Of a DNA stretch of 14,116 nt, positions 3 to 14,116 are shown one piece after another (position 1 is the first letter of the stretch; every line of letters begins with the position of its first letter). Location of the stretch: positions 1 to 14,116 of the forward strand of contig JACRII010000063.1 of assembly GCA_016235875.1 (NCBI GenBank). The letters run 5' to 3'. The position numbers and the translations under genes were made by a program. The DNA is from Planctomycetota bacterium. GTDB taxonomy: Bacteria; Planctomycetota; Brocadiia; Brocadiales; Brocadiaceae. Under the pieces are notes generated by a model that was not told the DNA's origin, did not search any database, and saw only the letters and a program-made list of their open reading frames with translations.

Positions 3-2027
3 CTATATCTTTAATGCTACTTGAAAACCTTCATGAATAGCCTCAAGTGCCGTGCGTACTTTGACACAATCGCCGATAAAGTATGTCTCCGGGAATTTTC
101 CCTCCACCTGCTTCTGGAGTTCGTTGTTGGGGCTGTATCCTACGGCAACGATAACAGTATCTGCCTTGATAAAGTGTTCCTGACCGTCTTTTTCATACAC
201 CACCCCCCTATGTATTTGTCCGTTTTCGCTGTGGTTGTTTGTAATTTCTTTTACCTTTAGTTCCGTTATTTCTTTTATCCCTGCATCTTTTAGTTCATTG
301 AGGATAACCCATCGTGTGGAAAAACCAAATCCGCCCCCAACCTTTCTTTTCATTTCCAGCAGGGTGATATTCCTGTTCCCCTTCGAGGTATATTCAACAA
401 TATCTTTGGCGTCGAGCACCTTGTGTTTAAGCAGAAAACAGGCTACCTCCGGTCTCATCGCCCCCTGTTTTGCCAAGTACAGCGCCACCTCACACCCAAC
501 CGTTCCACCGCCAATGATGACAACGTCCCTCCCTGTCGTTACTTTCCCTTCCAACACACTACTGGCGATAGAAACATTTTCTCCGTTTATTCCCCGGAGA
601 TTGAGCATTATTGGACGTCCACCTGTGGCTATGATTACTGCATCAGGGTGTTCTTCCTCTAACGTCTGTAAATCTGCCTCTTTTCCCATTTTTATATTTA
701 CGTTGAGTTTTGAAATTTGTCTTTCCAGATACGATATGATATTTTGTATTTCTTCTCGTCCCGGTGGAATAAAGGCGTATCGTAATTGACCACCCAGTTG
801 ATGACTCTTTTCGTACAGCGTCACATTGTGCCCCCTCAATGCCAGGACACGTGCAGCCTCCATGCCACCTGGTCCGCCGCCCACAACCACAATCTTTTTC
901 GAATTATCCGCTTTGGTTATCTTGTATTCACCTTCATGCCCCACCATCGCATTATAAGTGCAGGCTACTGGTTTAAAATTAAGCAGGGAATCAAAACACC
1001 CCTGATTGCAGGCAATACACGTCCTGATATCATCATACTGCCCGTTTTTAAATTTATTCGGCAGTTCGGGATCAACAATCAAAGGTCTACCGATTGACAC
1101 CAGGTCTGCCTGTTCATTATCTAATATTTCTTCTGCTAATTTAAGATTGTTTATCCTCACCGAAGCAATTACGGGAACTGTTACCTGAGATTTAACCTTT
1201 GCAGAAAGATATGCATAAGCCATCCTTGGAATGGACATCAACATAATGGGGGTCTTGCTTTCGTGCCAGCCGGGAGAGACGTTAAAGGCGTCAGCGCCCG
1301 CCTGTTCCAACATTTTAGCAATTTCAATACTTTCATTTATCTTGAGCCCTTCCTCTACGAGATCATCACCTGACATTCTAAAGATGATGGGATAATCCTT
1401 CCCAACAGTTTGTTTTATAGCGAGAACCATTTCCCTTGCAAAACGAGTTCTATTTTCAAGACTTCCACCGTATTCATCGTCGCGCTTGTTCGTTGTCTTA
1501 GAGAGGAACTGATTGATAAGATATCCCATCCCGCCATGAAGCTCGACGGCATCAAAACCTGCTTTCTTCGCCCTTAATGTGGCGCTGACATAATTATCGA
1601 TAACCGTTTTGATCTCTGGAATTGTCAGGGCACGGGGTTCTTGTTTAATGCTTCTATATGTCACTGCAGAGGGTGCGACTGGTTGCATTTTTGTAAAAAA
1701 AGACGAAGCGCTTCTGCCGGCATGAAGGAGTTGAGCAGCCACACGAACGTCATACTGATGGATGGCATCGGTTAATCTTTTTAATCCGGGGATAAATTCA
1801 TCTTTATCCAGCCCAATGATGCTCTTCCAGACCTTACCATTCATCTCAGGATAACAGCCACCAACAACAATAAGACCTACTCCCCCCCTTGCACGCTCAA
1901 TATAAAAGTTGATAATCTGGTCGTTAATGGTGCCATCCGAAGTAAACCCCAGGTCCATGGCAGACATGATTATCCTGTTTTTCAACGTCATCTGGCCGAT
2001 ATTCTTTTTTTCAAATAGTTTGCTCAT
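3..2027 (-). CDS. FadH-like NAD(P)H-dependent 2,4-dienoyl-CoA / enoate reductase family flavoprotein (OYE-type FMN barrel + 4Fe-4S + FAD/NAD(P) domain)
   Basis: Complete 674-aa ORF with its stop codon at 3-5. It has an Old-Yellow-Enzyme-type signature (AVELHGGMGYLINQFLS...NKRDDEYGGSLENRTRF). It has the Cys cluster CIACNQGC-x11-C (C-x2-C-x3-C-x11-C). Two Rossmann glycine motifs follow (KIVVVGGGPGGMEAA and DVVIIGGGTVGCEVA). Length class and domain order match E. coli FadH. Confidence 0.85.
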   Translation of the reverse strand: MSKLFEKKNIGQMTLKNRIIMSAMDLGFTSDGTINDQIINFYIERARGGVGLIVVGGCYPEMNGKVWKSIIGLDKDEFIPGLKRLTDAIHQYDVRVAAQLLHAGRSASSFFTKMQPVAPSAVTYRSIKQEPRALTIPEIKTVIDNYVSATLRAKKAGFDAVELHGGMGYLINQFLSKTTNKRDDEYGGSLENRTRFAREMVLAIKQTVGKDYPIIFRMSGDDLVEEGLKINESIEIAKMLEQAGADAFNVSPGWHESKTPIMLMSIPRMAYAYLSAKVKSQVTVPVIASVRINNLKLAEEILDNEQADLVSIGRPLIVDPELPNKFKNGQYDDIRTCIACNQGCFDSLLNFKPVACTYNAMVGHEGEYKITKADNSKKIVVVGGGPGGMEAARVLALRGHNVTLYEKSHQLGGQLRYAFIPPGREEIQNIISYLERQISKLNVNIKMGKEADLQTLEEEHPDAVIIATGGRPIMLNLRGINGENVSIASSVLEGKVTTGRDVVIIGGGTVGCEVALYLAKQGAMRPEVACFLLKHKVLDAKDIVEYTSKGNRNITLLEMKRKVGGGFGFSTRWVILNELKDAGIKEITELKVKEITNNHSENGQIHRGVVYEKDGQEHFIKADTVIVAVGYSPNNELQKQVEGKFPETYFIGDCVKVRTALEAIHEGFQVALKI

Positions 2028-2553: not shown

Positions 2554-3135
2554 TCAGCAAGAGTAAATAGAGTAAAAAGCGATTATGCTTGATAAGAGAG
2601 GTAAATTTGGCTCAAATAAAATCTTTTGTTTAATCCGTTGGCAAATTATGCAAAGGCAAATACATCTCATGCCACTCAAAGCCGCCAAGTGTTGATGTTG
2701 ACTTTCCACCGTAGAAAAACCGTATTTTTGATAGTAAGGAACTAAGTTAGATTTACAAATCAAGAGGATCTTCTGCTTTTTTAATGCCTTCGATACCTCA
2801 ATAAATCTTGACATGAGTTTTTTAGAAACTCCATTCCCTTGATATTCAGGCAATACAGCTAAAGAGAAGATGACGATATTTTTCCCGTTTTTCTCATGAC
2901 CCACCATGTCTTTAAATGCCTCGTCCGTTATATCATCCCTGTTTGTTGACCCGCTGTTAATCATACCAACGATCTGACCCTTCAATTCAGCAACCAGAAA
3001 TCCGTCTGGATCCAGTTCAATGCGTTTTTGAATTTTTTCTCTTGTTGCTGCATCAGTAGTATAACAGATAGACTCAATGGTATAACAGGCATCCACATCG
3101 TGCTCATTGACATGCCTAATTATTACATTGGTCAT
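2554..3135 (-). CDS. GNAT-family (arylalkylamine N-acetyltransferase-like) acetyltransferase with a frameshifted 3' end; the intact reading would end at 2630
   Basis: GNAT core is present: FLVAELKGQIVGMIN, IFSLAVLPEYQGNGVSKKLMSRF, LLICKSNLVPYYQKYGF. After YGF the annotated frame gives a Cys-rich, low-plausibility tail. The neighbouring frame reads FYGGKSTSTLGGFEWHEMYLPLHNLPTD-stop, a typical GNAT C-terminus. The switch sits at the homopolymer 2715-2719. Confidence 0.85.
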   Translation of the reverse strand: MTNVIIRHVNEHDVDACYTIESICYTTDAATREKIQKRIELDPDGFLVAELKGQIVGMINSGSTNRDDITDEAFKDMVGHEKNGKNIVIFSLAVLPEYQGNGVSKKLMSRFIEVSKALKKQKILLICKSNLVPYYQKYGFSTVESQHQHLAALSGMRCICLCIICQRIKQKILFEPNLPLLSSIIAFYSIYSC

Positions 3136-4699: not shown

Positions 4700-4765
4700 C
4701 GTTTATTTAACGTTGTTGAACTAATGCTAAACAAAAAGACAAGTTTTCGGCATTATTTAAAATAT

Positions 4766-4781
4766 ATCAAATTCTGTGCCA
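4766..4781 (-). promoter_or_regulatory. Candidate sigma54-type (-24/-12) promoter upstream of the FapA gene
   Basis: The minus strand reads TGGCACAGAATTTGAT, against the consensus TGGCACG-N4-TTGCW. The -24 GG and the spacing are exact. The -12 element is TTGA instead of TTGC. It lies about 75 nt upstream of the ATG at 4690. Confidence 0.3.
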
Positions 4782-4850
4782 AAAGAGCAGCAAGAAGATT
4801 TACCGCGTAGTCGTTGATGAAGTAGAGACACAGGCAAAAAGGCGGTACGT

Positions 4851-4954
4851 AACCACAGATTTCTCTGATTACACAGACGATTAGGTTTTCTTCGTTTCTT
4901 GAGTTTTTCGTGTTTCTTGCGTTAACGATATAAACCCAAGAAACCTAACGAACC
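4851..4954. repeat. Short-repeat debris (AACCACAGATT / CACRGAT family plus an imperfect inverted repeat)
   Basis: aaccacagatt at 4851 recurs at 8286 (aaccacggatt) and 8363. The sequence ttaggttttcttcg...cgttaggtttcttggg (reverse complement) forms an imperfect inverted repeat. No ORF is present. Confidence 0.45.
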
Positions 4955-4970
4955 TTTAATAATATTAATC

Positions 4971-5130
4971 GGGGCTGTCCAAAATTTATTACCATGCGAA
5001 GGTGGAACGACTAAAGCAATCTCCTGATTTTAAAGGGTTTCAAAATGGATTGCTTCCCCTTTGCGATTCTCAGGGCTTCGGCTCACAACACTTGCGATGA
5101 CAGTTGAAAATTAAACTATTTGGACAGACC
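4971..5130. mobile_element. MITE-like non-coding element bounded by 9-bp terminal inverted repeats
   Basis: ctgtccaaa (4975-4983) is the exact reverse complement of tttggacag (5119-5127). The arms enclose about 135 bp with no ORF. The flanks are ggggctgtcc and ggacagaccc. No transposase is present. Whether this is a repeat family in the genome cannot be tested from one window. Confidence 0.4.
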
Positions 5131-5287
5131 CAGGTAAATCAAGCAATTGTTGCAGGACGTCTTCTTTACCGTTGCTTATGAAAGCGAGAAATTCTTTTTG
5201 GTCAAGTTTAGCAATTTGTACAACGTTACGCCTCAGTTTCATTTTGCCGCCCTGCAAAAACGTAAACTGCAGGCGCTGGTTGGGCAT
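5111..5287 (-). CDS. 58-aa ORF (MPNQRLQFTFLQGGKMKLRRNVVQIAKLDQKEFLAFISNGKEDVLQQLLDLPGSVQIV), possibly a gene remnant
   Basis: Found by hand translation; it falls below the size cutoff of the ORF track. The ATG at 5287 is 11 nt after the stop of the upstream gene, with no clear SD. The last codons and the stop are supplied by the right arm of the MITE-like element. Confidence 0.25.
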   Translation of the reverse strand: MPNQRLQFTFLQGGKMKLRRNVVQIAKLDQKEFLAFISNGKEDVLQQLLDLPGSVQIV

Positions 5288-5298
5288 TTCTGTTTTGT

Positions 5299-6033
5299 TT
5301 AGCTCACAGCTTTTCCGATCAAGCAGTCCACGCCGCCGACAATGACCGGTCCATATAGCGTTCCTGTGATGACTGGCTCATGAGAACCAATGATGACAGC
5401 CATGAAGGCATTGAAGTCCTTTGTATTTGCGCGGATATTGTCTGTCGTCGTCTTGCGTGTGTGAAACTCATGCACCACGAACACCGCAAGAGCAGAACCG
5501 TCTCGCCAGGCTTGGATTGCAGTGCCGCAAATTGCCGTAAGGAGTTGGTATCTGACGTTATCCCATCGGTTGTTCCCTGCGGGAACGAGGGAAAGCAGTT
5601 GAGTGATTCTTTCTGGCACTCTGGTTGATTCACCAGATTCTCTGCGTTTGTTGGCTAACAGTCTGTACTCCGCGACAGTTTCGTTCCCGAAAGGTTCGTC
5701 TGCCTTTGCTTCGATACAGATTGTGATTTGTTCCTGATTAGTCCGGCCGAGTAGCCAAAGGTCATGGTTACGTCCTTCGCCTCTTTCAGGAAGTGAAGTC
5801 ACGTATTCGGGAATCCCGCGCAAGAGATGTAGATCTGTGAGCCTCCTTGAAGAATGCAGTAGTTGTATCAGTTCCTCTGGCGGTGATATCTCGGATTGAC
5901 GGAACCAAGCCTTCGCCAGTTCCATTGCGCTTCTTTCGGGTTCCCACTGGTAATCCTTTTTCGGTCGGGTCCACATTTCCCAGTTTGTGATGGGTGTGCC
6001 GTCTGGCCGCGATAGAGTCAGTGGTGTTGTCAT
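5299..6033 (-). CDS. PD-(D/E)xK nuclease-fold protein, uncharacterised family (resembles my recollection of the DUF6946-type N-terminus)
   Basis: 244-aa ORF with a strong SD (AAGGAG 7 nt before the ATG at 6033). The motif series is E76 (IPEYV), D91 (RNHDLWLL) and E108-A-K110 (ITICIEAKADEPFG). That is D-x16-ExK on predicted beta strands. The N-terminus is Trp-rich (W-x2-W-x8-W...RSAMELAKAW). GC is about 50%, against about 42% for the window. Confidence 0.55.
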   Translation of the reverse strand: MTTPLTLSRPDGTPITNWEMWTRPKKDYQWEPERSAMELAKAWFRQSEISPPEELIQLLHSSRRLTDLHLLRGIPEYVTSLPERGEGRNHDLWLLGRTNQEQITICIEAKADEPFGNETVAEYRLLANKRRESGESTRVPERITQLLSLVPAGNNRWDNVRYQLLTAICGTAIQAWRDGSALAVFVVHEFHTRKTTTDNIRANTKDFNAFMAVIIGSHEPVITGTLYGPVIVGGVDCLIGKAVS

Positions 6034-6134
6034 ATTTGTTCTCCTTGCCCAACGCCTGAGCTAAGGGGCGCGAGGTAACCATGTCAGACTGATAAAGAAA
6101 ACCGGCTAATCCCGCGTCCCTCTTGAGCGATTTG

Positions 6135-6965
6135 TTAGGCTTTCTTAAAATATGGAAAGACTGATGACATATGTATTGTTGTTTCATTTATGACCTGGGC
6201 TGCATAACAGTCTTCCCATCCATCTGCATCAAATATCTCGTTGAATTTATAATTGTGATATTCGGCTATCCAACGGTACTTTTCAAGTATTCTTATGTTC
6301 TTAAGATTCTTGTTCACGTTTTCGATAATTGATTCTTTATGGTCATGTAAGAATTCTATCTGTTCCATTCCGTCCTCATAAAGCATATTCAAATAATCGA
6401 CAAAGAAATAGCCATCGGGAGATTCCATTATGAAATTTAGATTATTCTTTTTCTCAAAGGGATTTTGTTCATTAATAATTTGCTCAACAAGAGTGCTGTC
6501 AACAATAATTCGTGGATACATTGCAACTTGCTCTAATTCATATGCTTTTATTAATCCCTGACTAAATACCATTCTTTCATTTTCAAAGTGACAACCATGT
6601 GACAAAGCCCCTCTCAAAAACATTTTCCTTAATGAAAAGTAGAGTTGTATAAAGGCTAACTCATACAAAATATAAAAGATGTTCTCTTTAGAATATTCGC
6701 ATGATACGCAAATACAATCAGAAAATAGTTTAGTTGAGAATGTCTTGCCATAATTATCATTAAGCACATTCAAAACATGCTTCAGGTGACCATCAATATA
6801 ATTTATTGTTTGTAACGCTCCTTCTCTACCCTGCATTACCAAATCTTTAAAACCAAGGATGTCTATGAAAGCGACGAGTTTATCTGGATAATTTGATTCA
6901 TTATATGAATTTACCATATACTGCCCGCTCACTAATGTATTATTGAAATACTTTAAGTCTAACAT
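6135..6965 (-). CDS. Minimal class III nucleotidyl cyclase-like (palm-domain) protein with a C-terminal helical extension; function unknown
   Basis: 276-aa ORF. VAFIDILGFKDLV matches the F-x-D-x-x-GF first metal-Asp strand (D35). KLFSDCICVS supplies the second Asp 48 residues later (D83). LRGALSHG...GLIKAYELE is in the position of the RIGIHTG...VN-AARLE segment. GC is about 32% (hand count over 13 lines). Confidence 0.5.
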   Translation of the reverse strand: MLDLKYFNNTLVSGQYMVNSYNESNYPDKLVAFIDILGFKDLVMQGREGALQTINYIDGHLKHVLNVLNDNYGKTFSTKLFSDCICVSCEYSKENIFYILYELAFIQLYFSLRKMFLRGALSHGCHFENERMVFSQGLIKAYELEQVAMYPRIIVDSTLVEQIINEQNPFEKKNNLNFIMESPDGYFFVDYLNMLYEDGMEQIEFLHDHKESIIENVNKNLKNIRILEKYRWIAEYHNYKFNEIFDADGWEDCYAAQVINETTIHMSSVFPYFKKA

Positions 6966-7041
6966 TTACTTTTATCTTTATTCTATAATTACCAATAAGT
7001 TATTTATGATATTTCAGATAAAACACTCAATAAGCATTACA

Positions 7042-8277
7042 TTATTTGCTGAACTTATTTATCACCAAACATGAATTATTTCCATCATAATCCATGGTAT
7101 TTATCAACACATTCTGGATTTCTTTTTTGAGGGGCTTTTCTATGATTAAATTCAGATTTATTTCTGGGTCCTTGTTGCTGTGATTGATGATGTGGGGTAT
7201 GAAACCTGTATTGATGGACATGACCGTAGAAATGAACTGTGCTGCGCCTGAAGCGCCGTAAGACTCCCCCACATTCGATTTGATTGCAGAGACTGGAATT
7301 TGACTGCATCCTGTGCCAAAATAAGATTGGATTGCCTTCGCCTCGACTTTATCCTGCATCTTGCATCCGTTTGCATTTGCACTGATGAGACCAACATCTT
7401 CTTTCTTAACTCCTGCACCTGTCAGGGCATCATGCATGGCTTTTTCGACACGTCGCACTCTTATGTCTTCCGGGTGTTTCTTGCCTCCTACAAATGTGCT
7501 TCCAAAGCCTCTTATTTCGGCATAAATGTGAGCACCCCGGTCTAATGCGTGTTGGAGTTCTTCAAGAATAATTACGTAACTGCCTTCTGACATGACAAAT
7601 CCGTTTCTTGTTTTATCAAAGGGCAGGCTTTCCTCTTTTACACCGTCTAGGCCGGACAGAAGGCCACGTAAATAAAATATCAGAAATAAATCAATGGAAA
7701 TCTGCTCTACCCCCCCTGCCAAGATTATCTTTGCCATACCTCTTTGAATCATTTTATAGGCATCCCCAAGGGCATCGGTACTTGACGTGAAACCAGCAGA
7801 AATAGTGCGCGCAAGTCCCTTGATTTTAAAGATGACCGATACGTAGTTAATTGACGAATTCAAGGCAACGTCGTAACTGAGCATGGGTGATAGTTCGGAT
7901 GGATTATTCCGGATAATTTCATAGAAATAGTCTGTCGTCTCAGAAAAATTGCCCAGAGACGAGCCTATGATAATCCCCATCTGATTCGACAACGACCCGT
8001 CCTGCGGCAGTTTTGCATCGTCCAACGCCATCTTAGAGGCAGACCCCAAAAACCGTGTGCCTTTGTTTAAATATTTTAAACCTTTGCTGCCGAGGTACAC
8101 TTCGGGTTTAAGGTCTCTGACCTCACCGCCCAGTTTGCATTTGTAAGGAGAGAGGTCGAGAGAAATCATGGGTGCGATGCCTGACTTTCCCTCAATGAGA
8201 TTATTCCAGAACGCCTCTTTGCCGCAGCCAAGAGGGGAGACAACTCCTATACCGGTAATAACGACTCTCTTTTTCAT
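7042..8277 (-). CDS. Ketosynthase-fold protein lacking the Cys-His-His triad (chain-length-factor / KS-beta-like partner)
   Basis: 411-aa ORF, alignable along its length to the KS at 8443-9654 (MKKRVVITGIGVVSPLG...). The active-site Cys position reads ISAGFTSS (Phe163, codon 7789-7791). The HGTGT position reads ANANGC. The GH-x-x-GA position reads GESYGASGA. Confidence 0.85.
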   Translation of the reverse strand: MKKRVVITGIGVVSPLGCGKEAFWNNLIEGKSGIAPMISLDLSPYKCKLGGEVRDLKPEVYLGSKGLKYLNKGTRFLGSASKMALDDAKLPQDGSLSNQMGIIIGSSLGNFSETTDYFYEIIRNNPSELSPMLSYDVALNSSINYVSVIFKIKGLARTISAGFTSSTDALGDAYKMIQRGMAKIILAGGVEQISIDLFLIFYLRGLLSGLDGVKEESLPFDKTRNGFVMSEGSYVIILEELQHALDRGAHIYAEIRGFGSTFVGGKKHPEDIRVRRVEKAMHDALTGAGVKKEDVGLISANANGCKMQDKVEAKAIQSYFGTGCSQIPVSAIKSNVGESYGASGAAQFISTVMSINTGFIPHIINHSNKDPEINLNLIIEKPLKKEIQNVLINTMDYDGNNSCLVINKFSK

Positions 8278-8280
8278 ATA

Positions 8281-8442
8281 CTTTTAACCACGGATTAACA
8301 CGGATGTACACAGATATAAAACATTATAACTCACCGCAAAGACGCAAAGTGCGCGAAGAATTAACCACAGATTACTACACACAAACACGGCTAAAGACGT
8401 AAATGATGGGTTCACTTCGCCCTTCGCACACTCAGGACAGGC
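8281..8442. repeat. Intergenic short-repeat debris (CACRGAT heptamers, AACCACRGATT x2, GC-rich tail)
   Basis: aaccacggatt is at 8286 and aaccacagatt at 8363. CACRGAT occurs at 8289, 8299, 8309 and 8366. The sequences ctcaccgcaaagacgcaaagtgcgcgaag and gggttcacttcgcccttcgcacactcaggacaggc resemble dispersed junk repeats seen in many uncultured-bacterium genomes. No ORF is present. Confidence 0.5.
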
Positions 8443-9654
8443 TTAACCCATCCTACTGAATATCGTGGTGGCGTTATTGCCGCCAAATGCGAATGAATTA
8501 TTGAGCACATGGCTTATTTTTAATTCTCGCGCCTTATTCGGTATATAATCAAGGTCACATTCCGGGTCGGGCGTTTCGTAATTGATTGTTGGAGGCGCTA
8601 TTCCATGCCTCAGTACCAGACAGCAGATGACCGATTCTACGGCGCTTGCTGCGCCCATAAGGTGACCAATCATGGATTTTGTGGAACTGCAAGGAATTTT
8701 ATAGGCACGTTCACCAAAGACGCGTTTTATGGCGGTGGTTTCTGTTTTGTCATTATGGGGAGTTCCTGTACCATGTGCGTTGATGTAACCAATGTCTGCT
8801 TGAGAAAGGGTTGCCATTTTTAATGCATCACTCATGCATTTTACAGCACCATCTCCTTCGGGATGTGGCGCAGTCATGTGGAATCCATCGCAACTCAGCC
8901 CGTAACCCGCCATTTCAGCAATAATCTGTGCCCCTCGTTTTTTCGCAAATTCATAGCGTTCCATGATCAATATTCCAGCCCCCTCGCCAATCATGAGGCC
9001 CTGGCGGTTTTTATCAAAGGGCTGGCAGCGTTCAGGCGCTAAGGCCTTGAGGTTGTGAAAGTGGGTAAATTCCGTTTGGGGAATCATGTCGCCACCCCCT
9101 ACCATCATCACGTCCACCTTGTTTTCCATAAGAAGCTCACACGCCCAGGCAATGGCGTGATTGCCAGACGAGCAGGCATTCAGCGAGATCATGGTTGGAC
9201 CTTCAAAATCAAAATATTGAGCCAGGATGTTTGTGATAGAATTGGGAGGATAAACGGCTGCAACGATTTTATCAAAACCGTTATCTTTTCTAGAAGTATC
9301 TAACCTCAGAAGCCTTTCAAAAGGCGTCAATTCGGCTGCTAATGTTCCCATGGCGATACCGAATCGCTCTTTATCGAAATTATTATCATTTAGTAAACCG
9401 CTTTCTTGCAGCGCCTCTCTAGCTGCATAGTAAACATATTTATGGATGGTGTTTTCCTTGATCTGGTTTTCCAATTCAAAATCCCACTGGAAATTCTTTA
9501 CCTCGCAGGAACGATGCACCTTGTATTTTGAGGTATCGAATGACTTCATCTCATTGGTGCCGTTCCTGCCCTGGATGAACGATTCCCAGCTTTGTTTGAC
9601 ACCGATTCCAACGGGTGTGACCAATCCCAATCCTGTAATTACGACCTTTGACAT
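8443..9654 (-). CDS. Beta-ketoacyl-ACP synthase, FabF/KAS II family, catalytically intact
   Basis: 403-aa ORF. Cys161 lies in ISLNACSSGN (codon 9172-9174 verified). His294 lies in INAHGTGTPHND. His331 lies in STKSMIGHLMGAASA. The C-terminus is the typical NSFAFGGNNATTIF. Confidence 0.9.
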   Translation of the reverse strand: MSKVVITGLGLVTPVGIGVKQSWESFIQGRNGTNEMKSFDTSKYKVHRSCEVKNFQWDFELENQIKENTIHKYVYYAAREALQESGLLNDNNFDKERFGIAMGTLAAELTPFERLLRLDTSRKDNGFDKIVAAVYPPNSITNILAQYFDFEGPTMISLNACSSGNHAIAWACELLMENKVDVMMVGGGDMIPQTEFTHFHNLKALAPERCQPFDKNRQGLMIGEGAGILIMERYEFAKKRGAQIIAEMAGYGLSCDGFHMTAPHPEGDGAVKCMSDALKMATLSQADIGYINAHGTGTPHNDKTETTAIKRVFGERAYKIPCSSTKSMIGHLMGAASAVESVICCLVLRHGIAPPTINYETPDPECDLDYIPNKARELKISHVLNNSFAFGGNNATTIFSRMG

Positions 9655-9677
9655 AGTGTTCGTTTTTTAAGTTATTA

Positions 9678-9766
9678 GTAGGGTGGATTAAGGCGTTGGT
9701 TTTTGCGCCGAATCCACCAAACTATTTCCAGGAAAGGTGGATTCGCACTTGCTTAATCCACCCTAC
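9678..9766. repeat. Nested inverted-repeat element carrying four GGTGGATT cores in + - + - order
   Basis: The outer arms gtagggtggattaag (9678-9692) and cttaatccaccctac (9752-9766) are perfect 15-bp complements. The inner arms cgaatccacc (9709-9718) and ggtggattcg (9736-9745) are perfect 10-bp complements around a 17-nt loop. Confidence 0.8.
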
Positions 9767-9814
9767 GCAAAACCGCATGAACAAAATGAAAATTCCTGAG
9801 CATTAAAACAAGAG

Positions 9815-9853
9815 AGGTCAACTATTCACCTTTCAATGCGAATAAGTTGACCT
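9815..9853. repeat. 9-bp inverted repeat (aggtcaact ... agttgacct) with a 21-nt loop
   Basis: 9815-9823 is the exact reverse complement of 9845-9853. It lies in the spacer between the radical SAM gene and the KS gene. Confidence 0.5.
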
Positions 9854-9924
9854 ACGATGATCAAACCACAAACGTTGAATTAGGCCTTTGGTGACTTATA
9901 CATACACATTTTCGCAACAGATGT

Positions 9925-9990
9925 CCACCCCCTTCACCCCCGCCAGCGGGGGACAGATGGTTGTCCCTCTCAGTGAGGGGGATTAAGAGG
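9925..9990. repeat. GC-rich hairpin element (REP-like), copy 2, with two short hairpins
   Basis: cccccg-ccag-cggggg spans 9937-9952 and ccctc-tcagt-gaggg spans 9965-9979. The lead-in ccacccccttcaccccc resembles the lead-in of the 3241-3282 element. It starts about 35 nt downstream of the radical SAM stop. Confidence 0.55.
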
Positions 9991-10024
9991 GAGGCGCGTT
10001 TGTTTGAAATTCCTAAACATTAAA

Positions 10025-11503
10025 TTATGATGATACCTCAACCGGCTTCAATTCAATCTTTTTTCCGGATGTTTCCATTTGACTGTGTCGTTTTAATGCC
10101 TCATCGTAAACCCCTGATGCTTGCAGTTCTTTTAAATTTTGAATCAAGTGTTGATAGACACTCTGCCAGTCCAGGTTTACTCTGAATGCAAACATGGCGG
10201 CATTCATGTTATCTTTATGTACTTCTTTTGCATTCTGGAATCTTTGCCGTAATACTTCTGTAGAGTAAATTTTGTCGTATAAATATTGGAAGCCATCAAT
10301 AAGTTCCTGGAGAGACATGTTTTTAAGGACGTAGGTTAGGTGATGAGACGTGTAATACTTCCAATCTTCAGGGAAGTCTGTCCTGAAAAGTCTTCCATCT
10401 CCGTTCAGTCTGTGATACAGCGGTGTATTGATGAATGGACATAGGATACCGCAGGTCATAATATCAACGTGCGAATCCAGGACGAAATCAGCAACCTGTT
10501 TAAAGGTTTCAGGGGTATCGGCATCGTTCCCAAAGACCATCGTCCCCCAAACAGCGAGACCGTGTTTACGTATATTGGCAATGGCCTCAAAATAATTCTC
10601 AATCGAGATGCGCAGGTTTACATTTTTATTCATCGTTTTCAGGGCTTCTTCATTGATGGATTCGATCCCAATTAATACCCCGACACACCCGCTCTTCTTC
10701 ATATATTCAAGGGTTTCGTCGTCCTGATAGATATTGAGAGATGTAAAACCGAACCAGTTTTGGTAAATTCCTCTTTCAACCATTCCCTTAAAAAGGTCTC
10801 GGACACGCTCATTGGATTTTTTGCTATGCCCATAAAAATTTTCATCCGTTAATATCAAACCGCGATATTGACCTTTGATGGATTCAAACTCATCAAGGAC
10901 ATCTTCAATCGGCCTTTCACGATATTTCCTGCCCTGGAACTGAGGCACTGAGCAGAACTCACAGCTAAATGGGCAACCCGCGGTTGTTATAATACCTGAA
11001 TACCGGTATTTATATTTATCCTTTAAATATTTCCTATCAGGACGCAATCCCTGATATAACTCCATCGGTGTCAGGACACCATCGTATCTTTTTTGGAGAC
11101 AGCCATTTTCAAAATCGCTAATAATCTTTTCCCATGTGGTTACGGCTTCTCTGGTCACGACACAATCCACGTATTTTGCCGCCTCTTCAGGATAACTGGT
11201 GACATGAATGCCGCCCATAATCACAGGTATACCCCGTTTTTTACAGGCAATTGCTATTTGATATGCACGATGTGCCTGATAACTCACCGATGTAATGCCA
11301 ACAAGGTCGGCTTCACCAAAGGTAATATTTCCTGTATCGTCAATCGCAAGCCCCTGGGTTTCATCTATAATATCAACCTGCCAGTGTTTTGGCGTTAATA
11401 CCTTTAGATATCCGAGATTTACAGGCATTTGATTTAATACAGAGACGTTTTCCTCGCCAACATTTCCAATCGGATGCGGGTTAATTAGTACGAGCTTTTT
11501 CAT
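10025..11503 (-). CDS. B12-binding domain-containing (class B) radical SAM enzyme
   Basis: 492-aa ORF. The N-terminus is a cobalamin-binding-type Rossmann segment (DLVGITSVSYQAHRAYQIAIACKKRGIPVIMGGIHVTSYPEEA). The CxxxCxxC motif is AGCPFSCEFCSV (Cys177/181/184, codons 10952-10975 verified). A long C-terminal extension is typical of this class. Confidence 0.9.
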   Translation of the reverse strand: MKKLVLINPHPIGNVGEENVSVLNQMPVNLGYLKVLTPKHWQVDIIDETQGLAIDDTGNITFGEADLVGITSVSYQAHRAYQIAIACKKRGIPVIMGGIHVTSYPEEAAKYVDCVVTREAVTTWEKIISDFENGCLQKRYDGVLTPMELYQGLRPDRKYLKDKYKYRYSGIITTAGCPFSCEFCSVPQFQGRKYRERPIEDVLDEFESIKGQYRGLILTDENFYGHSKKSNERVRDLFKGMVERGIYQNWFGFTSLNIYQDDETLEYMKKSGCVGVLIGIESINEEALKTMNKNVNLRISIENYFEAIANIRKHGLAVWGTMVFGNDADTPETFKQVADFVLDSHVDIMTCGILCPFINTPLYHRLNGDGRLFRTDFPEDWKYYTSHHLTYVLKNMSLQELIDGFQYLYDKIYSTEVLRQRFQNAKEVHKDNMNAAMFAFRVNLDWQSVYQHLIQNLKELQASGVYDEALKRHSQMETSGKKIELKPVEVSS

Positions 11504-11886
11504 GAATGTTCCTCATATTTTGGTACCAAAAGTACCTGTGCAATGGCATAATCCTGGCAATGTGATAATGATACTGCGATATCGCTAATATGTTTCCTGT
11601 CTGCCAATTCTTTTACACTTCCATAAAGATTCACGTAGGGCCTGCCATTTTCGTCGTTTAACAGTTCGATATCCGTCCATTTCATTTTACCAACCCAACC
11701 AGTTCCCAAGGCCTTGAACATGGCCTCTTTTGTAGCAAAGCGAGCTGCAAAATGCTGATATTTGTTTTTCTTTGGTTTACAATATTCAACCTCTTTTTCC
11801 GTGTAAATTTTTTTAAGAAAACCCTCATTGGCAGAAAACAATCTCTCAATGCGTTTTATTTCAATAATATCAATTCCAACATACAT
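11500..11886 (-). CDS. acpS: Holo-[acyl-carrier-protein] synthase (AcpS-type 4'-phosphopantetheinyl transferase)
   Basis: 128-aa ORF with GIDIIEIKRI, FAARFATKEAMFKALGTG and AVSLSHCQDYAIAQVLL, at the length typical of AcpS. Its TGA overlaps the radical SAM ATG in the sequence ATGA (11500-11503). Confidence 0.9.
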   Translation of the reverse strand: MYVGIDIIEIKRIERLFSANEGFLKKIYTEKEVEYCKPKKNKYQHFAARFATKEAMFKALGTGWVGKMKWTDIELLNDENGRPYVNLYGSVKELADRKHISDIAVSLSHCQDYAIAQVLLVPKYEEHS

Positions 11887-11958
11887 AAATATTTTGTTTT
11901 ACCTTCATGATCGTATTAAATACTTATAATGCAAGTATCTGTCATCACGACAGTTGGC

Positions 11959-11987
11959 ATTTTACAGATTTACAAAATTAATGTCAA
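11959..11987 (-). promoter_or_regulatory. Near-consensus sigma70-type promoter for the acpS-radical SAM(-KS) transcription unit
   Basis: The minus strand reads TTGACA (11987-11982), a 17-nt spacer, then TAAAAT (11964-11959). The -10 element lies about 72 nt upstream of the acpS ATG. This is the first intergenic gap over 300 bp upstream of the cassette. Confidence 0.5.
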
Positions 11988-12208
11988 TGACATTTTCCTG
12001 TGGAACAAAGCAAAATAAGTTGAATTGAATAATTGTATGTGGGCTGCTTATTTCAAATATACAGAAGATACTTACTCTGTGATTTGATCACATGGAGTGT
12101 AGAAAAAATTGAGTATCCGTGATTAAAAGTATTTTTTATGAGAGGGGGAGGAGGGTGCTCCACCTCAAGAAGAGATGAAACACCCAGCTCTGTGTTGGAA
12201 ATTTTACT

Positions 12209-12457
12209 TCAAAGTTTTTTATTCTTTTGGCTGTATTTTCTACCAATGTCTGCTGCTATATCATACCCTGATTTTTTAAAACATGACAGACATTCAATAT
12301 AATTATCGTTTTCCCGCAAACTGGGTAAAACCCCAGTTTCAAATGTACGTATCCCTAGTTCAGGAGATTGTTCTACAATTTGGAAGCTACTTGAGAATAT
12401 TCTAAATTTTTTAATATCACCACAGTTTGGACATGCCAAGAATATGTTTCCGTTCAT
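12209..12457 (-). CDS. Small 4-Cys zinc-ribbon protein, function unknown
   Basis: 82-aa ORF with CPNC (Cys9/12) and CLSC (Cys56/59). The C-terminus is basic. It is the last gene of the co-directional HD-GYP gene string. Confidence 0.55.
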   Translation of the reverse strand: MNGNIFLACPNCGDIKKFRIFSSSFQIVEQSPELGIRTFETGVLPSLRENDNYIECLSCFKKSGYDIAADIGRKYSQKNKKL

Positions 12458-12518
12458 AATATTGGGTCATTACTCCATAGTAATTTTGTTACCTTTTGGT
12501 AAATTTGTTAGTATTTTA

Positions 12519-12887
12519 TCACTGGATAAGGGTTTGTTCTGTTTCGAATTCGAATACGGTTTTAAATTCGTTAAAGAAGTAAGCCTCGCCGTAGCCGGAC
12601 ACATTCGAACCAGATAACGGAGTCCATGCAACGTAAATGGATTTTCCCATATTCAATTGTTCTGTAACTGCTTCATATTGGTGAACTGGGGCATAGAAAT
12701 GTATCTTCTCTTCCGAAAAGATTGCATCAGGTCTGCAAAAGTTTTCCTCCGCAAAATAGGCTGATGCGACATGATTTTCCCCAGAATACAGATCGATTAC
12801 TTTAGTTGCTTCTATTATTAAATCATGTTTATCGCTTGGACATTCTCGTAGGATATAGGTATCAATTCTGTGTGTTATAAATTCCAT
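12519..12887 (-). CDS. Hypothetical protein (122 aa), no recognisable motif
   Basis: Clean ORF beginning 23 nt after the preceding gene. Its composition matches its neighbours. I recognise no motif. Confidence 0.55.
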   Translation of the reverse strand: MEFITHRIDTYILRECPSDKHDLIIEATKVIDLYSGENHVASAYFAEENFCRPDAIFSEEKIHFYAPVHQYEAVTEQLNMGKSIYVAWTPLSGSNVSGYGEAYFFNEFKTVFEFETEQTLIQ

Positions 12888-12910
12888 CAGTAACTTTCAC
12901 CTTTTCATAA

Positions 12911-13234
12911 TTATAATAAATTTAACCCTACTTTTTTTAATTCCTGACGACGCTCCAGAATGCTAAAATATATAGATGGCCAGGATCTCTTTGCATAGAT
13001 AATAGGTATTCCTTTATTGCCGGCAATTTTTTTTATCTTGTACGCCAGATTATGATTTACGAAATCATAAAGGAGAATAATAAAGTCGGCATTATCAGGC
13101 ATTTTTCCGCGAATTTTCTGTCCACTCCTGCCGTTTAAGTGCTGAATTTTCGAGATACCAATTCTGTCAAGTTCCTTTGGAATGCACCCAAGATGATCCG
13201 CCCCAACAATTATTACTGACATTTTATAATTCAT
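12911..13234 (-). CDS. DUF2325-like small protein
   Basis: 107-aa ORF. MSVIIVGADHLGCIPKEL...ADFIILLYDFVNHNLAYKIKKIAGNKGIPIIYAKRSWPS matches the pattern I recall for DUF2325: VLIVGG..lG, then D-F-V-S-H, then a basic helix, then 'P.v...rS.S'. The true start may be the ATG at 13222. Confidence 0.7.
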   Translation of the reverse strand: MNYKMSVIIVGADHLGCIPKELDRIGISKIQHLNGRSGQKIRGKMPDNADFIILLYDFVNHNLAYKIKKIAGNKGIPIIYAKRSWPSIYFSILERRQELKKVGLNLL

Positions 13235-13243
13235 TTAATTAAT

Positions 13244-14116
13244 TTAAACACCTATTAAAACGTCCTCGAATATCTTTAGATTAGCAGTACACAATCTATC
13301 GTCAAATTTAAATCCTTTTTCATTGAAAACAACCAAACAAGCGTACACTACATTAAAATCGTAAAGAATGCCCCTGTTTCGTGAAATTTCATCCAATACC
13401 TTGTCCAAACCAAGCGCTGGTCTATACGGGTGAGGAGACTGCATCGCATCAATAACGTCAGCCACGCCTAGAATTTTTGCTTCCAGGAGAATATCCTTTC
13501 CTGATAAACCTGAAGGATACCCGGAACCGTCAATCCTCTCATGGTGTTGGAGTACGATTTGAGCAACAGGAAGTGGAAATTCTATTTCATTTAATATATC
13601 ATAACCAAGACATGGATGAGTCTTAATCATATTAAATTCATCCTCTGAAAGCTGGTCTAATTTATTTAGAATCTCAGCAGGTATTGAAATTTTGCCAATA
13701 TCGTGAAGAGTAGCGGCTATACTGACTCCTTCAATCCTGTCTTTTGGCAGGCCCATCTCCTCAGCTATGCAGCGAGCAAGTTTAGCCACTCGTTTCTGAT
13801 GTCCTATTGAATAAGAATCTTTCGATTCGATGGCTACTGATAACGTCTGTACGATTCCTCTCATAGATTTTTGTAACTTCTTAACACTTTGTTTAAACTC
13901 TTCTTCCAGTCGTATGCGATTGTTAATTTCCTCCATCAATTCTTCGTTTACCCCCACTAACTTAGCCGTATGTTCAACCACACGTTTTTCTAAAGATTTG
14001 TTAAGCAGCCTCAGTCCTTCTTCAATTTGTTTGCGAGCGGTAATGTCCCTCGCTATCCCCGTAATACCAACTACATGTCCCTTCTCATTTCTCAATGGAA
14101 AATTTTTGTATTCACA
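13244..14116 (-). CDS. PAS-domain / HD-GYP domain protein (putative c-di-GMP phosphodiesterase), N-terminus outside the window
   Basis: The reading frame stays open to the window edge (CEYKNFPLRNEKGHVVGITGIARDITARKQ, the end of a PAS domain). The track's 'M' at 14095 is a TTG. After a coiled-coil linker come HD-GYP signatures: ATLHDIGKISIP and HHERIDGSGYPSGL. Confidence 0.9.
   Translation of the reverse strand, partial: CEYKNFPLRNEKGHVVGITGIARDITARKQIEEGLRLLNKSLEKRVVEHTAKLVGVNEELMEEINNRIRLEEEFKQSVKKLQKSMRGIVQTLSVAIESKDSYSIGHQKRVAKLARCIAEEMGLPKDRIEGVSIAATLHDIGKISIPAEILNKLDQLSEDEFNMIKTHPCLGYDILNEIEFPLPVAQIVLQHHERIDGSGYPSGLSGKDILLEAKILGVADVIDAMQSPHPYRPALGLDKVLDEISRNRGILYDFNVVYACLVVFNEKGFKFDDRLCTANLKIFEDVLIGV

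Follow-up and report, generated by a model that had tools for sequence, protein, structure and literature searches.

In positions 1 to 14,116 of contig JACRII010000063.1 of a Planctomycetota bacterium (GCA_016235875.1; this whole stretch is hereafter the window), we analysed four minus-strand genes for an AcpS-type holo-acyl carrier protein synthase, a B12-domain radical S-adenosylmethionine (SAM) enzyme, an active FabF-like ketosynthase (KS) and a catalytically dead KS paralogue. Judged by gene order, residue signature and taxon, this cassette is the Brocadiaceae counterpart of kuste2802-2805 of Kuenenia stuttgartiensis, proposed in 2009 as a candidate for ladderane synthesis (Rattray 2009, PMC2649909). 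We favour, with moderate confidence, the reading that it is a second radical SAM/KS/dead-KS module of the anammox-specific type II fatty-acid system thought to build ladderanes. The cassette and its ladderane interpretation are already known; new here are the paralogy of its last three genes with those of Cluster I (kuste3603-3608), the selection acting on the dead KS, the wider extent of the cluster and the fused arrays found in other lineages.

The order AcpS, B12 radical SAM enzyme, FabF and non-canonical KS on one strand was that of both published gene lists (PMC2649909 and PMC4790861). In K. stuttgartiensis, kuste2802 was listed as acpS, Kuste2803 as a B12-domain radical SAM enzyme (Rattray 2009, PMC2649909) and kuste2804 as FabF, the four genes being called "a complete cluster" (Javidpour 2016, PMC4790861; operons 3+4). 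Kuste2805 was described as a non-canonical KS with Phe163, Asn298, Asn300, Cys302, Lys328 and Glu333 (Table 2, PMC2649909), and the window dead KS read F/N/N/C/K/E at these positions (E. coli FabB numbering); Gln342 was also seen, by counting, and position 392 was by eye Tyr, not Phe. The synteny with a published candidate cluster that an earlier note on this DNA, made from the sequence alone, had suggested looking for was thus found in both gene order and active-site signature; its proposal of a ladderane-type candidate was supported, although the idea is not new and dates from 2009. The two clusters share the four gene types and their order, the dead-KS substitutions, an anammox host and the B12-domain architecture of the radical SAM enzyme. 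The window differs in its host genus, a Candidatus (Ca.) Wunengus/Wujingus-like groundwater Brocadiaceae, in having apparently mobile palindromic repeats in its gaps and in what looks like a lineage-specific insertion of about 5 kb before a FadH-like gene.

The contig is of anammox origin. The dead KS was 100% identical to a protein from an NCBI metagenome-assembled genome (MAG) titled "Planctomycetes bacterium" (contig DBJWYS010000012.1, GCA_052360725.1), the window making up the end of that contig. The nearest named relatives of the radical SAM enzyme and the dead KS came from two Brocadiaceae genera reported among groundwater anammox bacteria (bioRxiv 10.1101/2023.04.27.538623), with 89% for Ca. 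Wujingus californicus and 90% for Ca. Wunengus sp. YC64; next came Brocadia, Jettenia, Loosdrechtia and Scalindua. All 29 related loci were titled Brocadiales, Planctomycetota or Planctomycetia, and none came from another phylum. The guess of an anammox source was therefore correct, and the non-anammox classification named beforehand as grounds for giving it up did not occur, the closest relatives being Brocadiaceae.

Every window open reading frame (ORF) of notable size lay on the minus strand, and the flagged interval (11886..7042) ran from AcpS through the radical SAM enzyme and the KS to the dead KS, with ORF limits exactly as previously given. The AcpS stop codon and the radical SAM start codon overlap by 4 nt; the following gaps measure 370 bp (radical SAM to KS) and 165 bp (KS to dead KS). 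Among the related genome loci compared with the window (numbered L001 to L041), this order recurred in all Brocadiaceae loci with sufficient upstream flank except L020, and the ratio of nonsynonymous to synonymous substitution rates (dN/dS) was 0.03-0.08 across all four cassette genes, which are well beyond chance. In L020, a Brocadiaceae MAG, the dead KS (9134-10369) is preceded by a 1223-aa ORF, and AcpS, radical SAM enzyme and KS were not in the 9 kb upstream, an arrangement that could be a rearrangement or a misassembly. The window GC content was about 0.40-0.45, in line with the previous estimate of about 42%. The single near-consensus promoter proposed for the cassette was present as an 11/12 consensus match (TTGACA-17-TAAAAT), the top-scoring site within 6900-12600; it is a pattern match only, and the total of 21 promoter-like sites in that interval was not significant against the 15.6 ± 3.9 expected from shuffled sequence. 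An Rfam scan of the window returned no RNA element, and no tRNA was found there. The coordinates are collected below.

Table. Cassette genes and associated features, in window coordinates.
Feature	Position	Strand	Remarks
AcpS-type holo-ACP synthase (4'-phosphopantetheinyl transferase)	11500..11886	-	128 aa; kuste2802 counterpart
Predicted class B (B12-binding-domain) radical SAM enzyme	10025..11503	-	492 aa; Kuste2803 counterpart, type A
Active FabF-like ketosynthase	8443..9654	-	403 aa; kuste2804 counterpart
Catalytically dead KS paralogue, putative CLF-like partner	7042..8277	-	411 aa; kuste2805 counterpart
FadH-type 2,4-dienoyl-CoA reductase-like Fe-S flavoenzyme	3..2027	-	674 aa; probable downstream cluster member
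Sigma-70-like promoter match TTGACA-17-TAAAAT	11959..11987	-	73 nt upstream of the AcpS start codon

Both KS proteins have the N- and C-terminal ketoacyl-synt domains (Pfam). In a family alignment, the KS keeps Cys161/His294/Lys326/His331 and the dead KS has Phe, Asn, Lys and Glu in those columns (Cys to Phe, His to Asn, His to Glu, Lys kept), as it also does in the HMMER alignment to B. subtilis FabF; the predicted pairing of an intact FabF-type KS with a dead paralogue was thereby confirmed, Cys-His-His being kept in one and replaced by Phe-Asn-Glu in the other. The KS triad was invariant in 26/26 orthologues, and the Phe and Glu of the dead KS were kept in 30/30. With a dN/dS of 0.05-0.08 against four orthologues, similar to that of the active genes, the dead KS is under strong purifying selection and is not decaying. 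The two genes abut or overlap in many loci.

Among solved structures, the best match of the KS was amxFabF2 (PDB 9s5h_B, E 2e-123, 415 bits; best FabF 1e-90, 307 bits) and that of the dead KS amxFabFmut (PDB 9s5h_C, E 1.5e-88, 300 bits), ahead of B. subtilis FabF (7e-73, 249 bits) and the chain-length factor (CLF) of actinorhodin synthesis (2e-44, 155 bits). Neither protein passed the TIGR03150 fabF equivalog cut-off of 493.75 (KS 421.6, dead KS 315.5), whereas the KS passed the broader beta-ketoacyl-ACP synthase II subfamily model NF005589 (417 vs 387). In neighbour-joining trees the window KS grouped with amxFabF2, away from canonical FabF representatives, and the dead KSs of the window and Cluster I types formed separate clades. 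Type II polyketide synthase (PKS) pairs (actinorhodin, 1tqy; ishigamide Iga11/Iga12, 6kxd) follow the same logic, a condensing subunit beside an inactive homologue that sets the tunnel. Identity of the dead KS with a type II PKS CLF was considered and rejected, the Cys position holding Phe in 30/30 orthologues, not Gln, and the scores against PKS CLFs reaching 155-174 bits against 300 for amxFabFmut and 249 for FabF. FabF-like proteins, not PKS CLFs, appear to have been the ancestors of the dead subunit.

The characterised pair that most resembles the window pair, subunit by subunit, belongs to Cluster I. The Barends laboratory has described kuste3605/3606 as a KS/CLF-like heterodimer, in which amxFabF2 and amxFabFmut are active only when co-expressed, prefer C6-C8 chains and have been crystallised together (PDB 9s5h, 9s5i; bioRxiv 10.64898/2026.05.19.726425). 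As in the window, an active KS stands beside a triad-less paralogue. The two pairs are paralogues and not orthologues: against Cluster I of Brocadia sinica (L030), identity was 46% for the KS, 39% for the dead KS and 54% for the radical SAM enzyme, and on these comparisons each of the three window proteins is a one-to-one paralogue of its Cluster I counterpart. They differ in the residue replacing the catalytic Cys, Phe in the window dead KS and Val or Thr in the amxFabFmut type, and in gene content, the window cluster having AcpS and, unlike Cluster I, no acyl carrier protein (ACP), FabZ or phytoene-dehydrogenase-like (PDH) gene. Each gene of the kuste2803-2805 trio has its parallel in the Cluster I trio, and anammox bacteria are therefore likely to possess two KS/CLF-type heterodimers whose tunnels differ. 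The earlier note's KS-CLF reading is in keeping with this, the paralogous Cluster I heterodimer being, among solved structures, the one that both window proteins match best, and a heterodimer of KS and dead KS is the best-supported reading of the window pair.

Alignment also gave a first indication of how the two tunnels may differ. On the KS side, the tunnel and gate residues A110, A164, F203, M337 and F394 are conserved with amxFabF2, and on the partner side the amxFabFmut constriction residues Phe135/Thr138/Val139 are replaced by Ser/Val/Ala in the window dead KS. Because Ser and Ala stand at the F135 and V139 positions, and because a Phe135Gly/Val139Gly double mutant of amxFabFmut showed near-equal rates with all probe lengths (bioRxiv 10.64898/2026.05.19.726425), the tunnel of the window pair is predicted to be less restrictive than that of the Cluster I pair. 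The net charge of two interface segments, a helix-loop-helix (110-140) and a helix (196-206), is a crude measure; it did not recover the electrostatic asymmetry reported for amxFabFhet even for the published pair, and is evidence neither way.

The radical SAM enzyme matched PF04055 (E 1.7e-20), DUF4070 and, marginally, the B12-binding family PF02310 (32.6 bits vs a cut-off of 32.1). Its C177-x3-C181-x2-C184 motif (CX3CX2C) was invariant across 39 homologues, and an AlphaFold2 model built from these homologues (pLDDT 92, pTM 0.90) showed a Rossmann-like B12 domain at the N-terminus, then a radical SAM barrel and, at the C-terminus, a helical domain, its best fold matches (MgmA, AprD4, TsrM, CysS, TokK and OxsB) all being class B enzymes. 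The class B assignment made earlier was borne out by these domain matches, motif and folds, and the protein is predicted to bind and use cobalamin. A carrier-bound acyl substrate is plausible because the crystal structures of CysS and TokK contain pantetheinylated substrates. Although the window enzyme shares its domain architecture with class B members such as CysS (9n1b), TokK (7kdy), OxsB (5ul4), BchE and HpnJ, it is only 14-20% identical to any solved one, and it reached the cut-off of no curated NCBIfam model, those of BchE, HpnJ, PhpK and TIGR04072 all scoring far below. Membership of TIGR04072 ("rSAM_ladder_B12") was rejected at 81.4 bits against a cut-off of 360, so that by this model the enzyme is of a different family from the one that NCBI named after ladderane-type clusters. 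Kuste2803 itself has been named a potential cyclobutane-forming catalyst in a review of cobalamin-dependent radical SAM enzymes (PMC9204698). The homologue tree comprised three subfamilies, here A, B and C: type A includes the window enzyme and those of Scalindua, Hypogeohydataceae and other Brocadiales, type C is the Cluster I enzyme and type B is a third kind, which in at least one Brocadiaceae genome stands alone (L039, a MAG, 10001-11443, beside futalosine/menaquinone genes) and which in the GC-rich arrays described below is placed between types C and A.

The first gene of the cassette was assigned with confidence (PF01648, E 6e-20, 71.7 bits vs a cut-off of 25; acpS model TIGR00516, 96.5 vs 59.8), lay at the same position in 25/29 loci and had a dN/dS of 0.05-0.07. 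The description of this AcpS as dedicated to the cassette is doubtful: kuste2802 is the sole acpS of K. stuttgartiensis, with no paralogues (Rattray 2009 Table 1, PMC2649909), and for this reason the enzyme probably also serves the housekeeping ACP. A functional tie to the cluster is nevertheless plausible, since one of the fused arrays (L040) again includes AcpS.

The four-gene boundary drawn in the earlier note was borne out for the four genes themselves, with the FadH-like reductase at the window's left end as a probable further member of the conserved cluster. This protein aligned over its full length with E. coli FadH (1ps9; E 1.8e-114) and has Oxidored_FMN and Pyr_redox_2 domains. A FadH-like gene directly follows the dead KS in L019 (Jettenia ecosi; overlapping), L023 (48 bp), L027 (54 bp) and L041, and in several loci is followed by an enoyl-CoA hydratase (ECH) gene and, in some, by short-chain reductase (SDR) and muconolactone-isomerase-like (MIase-like) genes as well (L019, 11227-15317; L015, 14854-19485; L041, 14136-17318, ECH being absent from L041). 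The window contig ends inside this FadH-to-MIase-like stretch. In the searchable literature we met no discussion of these genes in connection with kuste2802-2805.

Outside the Brocadiaceae, both gene sets were found side by side. In L033 (1670-14797) the order is SCP2, ACP, FabZ-like, KS, dead KS, PDH, radical SAM types C, B and A, KS, dead KS and ECH; the stretch ends after ECH, and SDR was not seen there. L036 (1-14276) and L037 have the same array from FabZ or later, plus SDR and a fourth radical SAM gene; these stretches begin inside the array, and ACP was not seen in them. L040 (3954-18974) has no PDH, has SDR and adds MIase-like, a second ACP, a FabH-like KS, AcpS and a fifth KS, and L034 (5422-13164) is a shorter variant. 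The left half of the arrays was closest to Cluster I (L033 vs B. sinica: ACP 49%, FabZ 53%, KS 67%, dead KS 56%, PDH 50%, radical SAM 63%) and the right half to the window genes (radical SAM 58%, KS 58%, dead KS 45%). Their proteins branched outside the clade of Brocadiaceae, Scalindua and Hypogeohydataceae in protein trees, and the GC of the array loci was 0.55-0.70 against 0.37-0.46 in the 29 Brocadiales loci, a difference that by itself does not set them apart from newly described anammox orders, for which higher GC has been reported. A related module, in L038 (8799-15133), lies in a MAG labelled Blastocatellia (GCA_035652355.1) and consists of KS and dead KS (1-nt overlap) followed by type A and type C radical SAM genes, with no ACP, FabZ or PDH within 10 kb; nearby genes are of kinds that we take to be typical of Acidobacteriota.

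That other lineages have the window module and Cluster I joined in a single array is sound comparative evidence for a shared pathway. We raise tentatively, as a possibility somewhat short of even, that the two are halves of one ancestral self-contained pathway, which would survive as an array of about 12-16 genes on GC-rich contigs of bacteria apparently outside the known anammox families.

If the cassette is part of ladderane synthesis, AcpS would convert apo-ACPs to the holo form, including the anammox-specific amxACP encoded elsewhere, and the active and dead KS would form an obligate heterodimer like amxFabF2/amxFabFmut, in which the KS subunit would carry out malonyl-ACP decarboxylation and Claisen condensation while the dead subunit shaped the acyl tunnel. 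With Ser and Ala at the constriction positions, the pair may have room for chains that are longer or bulkier than those taken by the Cluster I pair, perhaps with rings. From the carrier-bound chain, most likely an intermediate attached to amxACP, the class B radical SAM enzyme would abstract a hydrogen atom, leading to C-C ring closure or to cobalamin-mediated methyl transfer, and the FadH-like reductase, with the ECH, SDR and MIase-like proteins of other genomes, could provide reductive steps.

Several points weigh against this reading. No biochemical link of any cassette gene to ladderanes exists, and in E. coli the kuste2802-2805 proteins were mostly insoluble and yielded no new fatty acids (PMC4790861). 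The proposed orthology with the Kuenenia genes was judged from published residue tables and gene order, and the tunnel argument comes from an alignment; pairing of the two KS proteins, binding of cobalamin and the nature of the substrate are likewise inferred. An ORF and Pfam survey found no ACP gene in the window, nor is one hidden in the 370-bp gap between the radical SAM enzyme and the KS, where there was no minus-strand ORF of at least 30 aa and a palindromic repeat lies instead. AprD4, one of the closest folds to the radical SAM model and of the same domain layout, has been described not as a methylase but as a diol dehydratase. Finally, homologous modules occur on GC-rich contigs (0.50-0.70) and in the Blastocatellia-labelled MAG, and the product may differ if these hosts lack ladderanes.

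This last point leads to the main rival explanation, which we regard as unlikely, though far from negligible: that the module makes a non-ladderane specialised lipid, for instance one with mid-chain methyl branches or other changes to its acyl chains, the B12 radical SAM enzyme being a methylase acting on an unactivated carbon and the KS pair supplying or elongating the chain. 10-Methylhexadecanoic acid is found in anammox bacteria as well, and iso-diabolic acid lipids, which are methyl-branched, are made by Acidobacteria. Most characterised class B neighbours of the window enzyme are methylases (MgmA, TsrM, CysS and TokK), and KS/dead-KS modules with type A radical SAM genes, with or without type C, are present both in the Blastocatellia-labelled MAG and on GC-rich contigs outside the Brocadiales/Hypogeohydatales branches of the trees. 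A methylase alone, however, would need no dedicated KS/CLF-like pair; the fused arrays hold complete Cluster I orthologues (amxACP-like ACP, amxFabZ-like dehydratase and PDH), which are regarded in the literature as specific to ladderane producers; and the GC-rich contigs may themselves belong to the higher-GC anammox orders. This rival becomes more likely should the fused arrays turn out to lie in non-anammox bacteria.

A housekeeping role, with AcpS as the general holo-ACP synthase, the KS genes as extra FabF/FabB-type elongation enzymes and the radical SAM gene as a mere neighbour, would fit both the single acpS listed for K. stuttgartiensis (kuste2802) and the score of the KS above the NF005589 cut-off. 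We consider it improbable: the KS falls below the fabF equivalog cut-off and branches with amxFabF2, its triad-less partner is strongly conserved, a canonical FabF (kustd1386) is encoded elsewhere in Kuenenia (PMC2649909), and the linkage of radical SAM enzyme, KS and dead KS is kept in anammox bacteria and in distant GC-rich lineages without AcpS at that position. An aryl-polyene or type II polyketide pigment cluster around a KS/CLF pair is very improbable, for although a KS with an inactive KS is the core of such systems and dead-KS relatives with the motif K-x3-G-E, at no more than 45% identity, are very common, the taxon and the synteny match the anammox cluster. As to gene content, the window was searched for the type II PKS components (ACP, cyclase, aromatase, starter-unit ligase) and for the aryl-polyene accessory set (ApeI/ApeP-type dehydratases, reductase, acyl/glycosyl-transferase and export genes), and none was present.

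Between the dead KS and the FadH-like gene, the window holds about 5 kb encoding a 276-aa protein (6135-6965; no Pfam match), a DUF6946 protein (5299-6033), FapA-like and GNAT proteins and a repeat protein. The 276-aa and DUF6946 genes were found in 0/29 related loci; local GC reached 0.48 in 4700-7041, and 4700-5298 had no ORF of at least 60 aa. The region 4700-7041 looks like a lineage-specific insertion. PADLOC defence-system models gave no match to the 276-aa protein, the DUF6946 protein or small upstream ORFs. In the gene of the repeat protein (2157-2486, 109 aa), a 33-bp unit is repeated in tandem (3.2 copies, peptide TERDKTDILTK); the protein ends in a hydrophobic C-terminus and matched no family. 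Only residues 1-140 of the GNAT acetyltransferase (2554-3135) align to relatives in other loci, and its Cys-rich C-terminal stretch of about 50 residues looks like a read-through or frameshift extension.

Intergenic gaps within the cassette vary widely among loci. In the window, part of the gap between the radical SAM enzyme and the KS is occupied by a palindromic REP/MITE-like element (9671-9773; arms GTAGGGTGGATTAAG, 59 nt apart; no Rfam match), and a related hairpin (8405-8456) follows the KS stop codon in the gap before the dead KS. Exact copies of the GTAGGGTGGATTAAG arm lie at different positions in L001, L003, L012 and L025, for which reason the element looks mobile, and it may explain the variable gaps. 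Upstream of AcpS, a trio encoding an HD-GYP-type protein (HD_5; on the full contig it also carries PAS domains), a DUF2325 protein and an 82-aa CxxC...CxxC protein with no Pfam match (12209-14095) recurs in many Brocadiaceae loci and could be a regulatory neighbour of the cluster.

The window thus adds another copy of the cluster proposed in 2009, and the finding itself is not new. Ladderane biosynthesis has been an open question since 2002, with no genetic system for anammox bacteria and no reconstitution in vitro, and the comparative results, namely a second KS/CLF-type pair, fused arrays and a wider gene set, may help those working on the pathway, the fused arrays pointing to compact gene sets for joint expression. 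If the array hosts are truly non-anammox, then either ladderane-like strained lipids would occur outside anammox bacteria or the product of the "ladderane cluster" would differ from what has been assumed; in either case, reconstitution of the pathway would gain new starting material in the compact single-operon versions.

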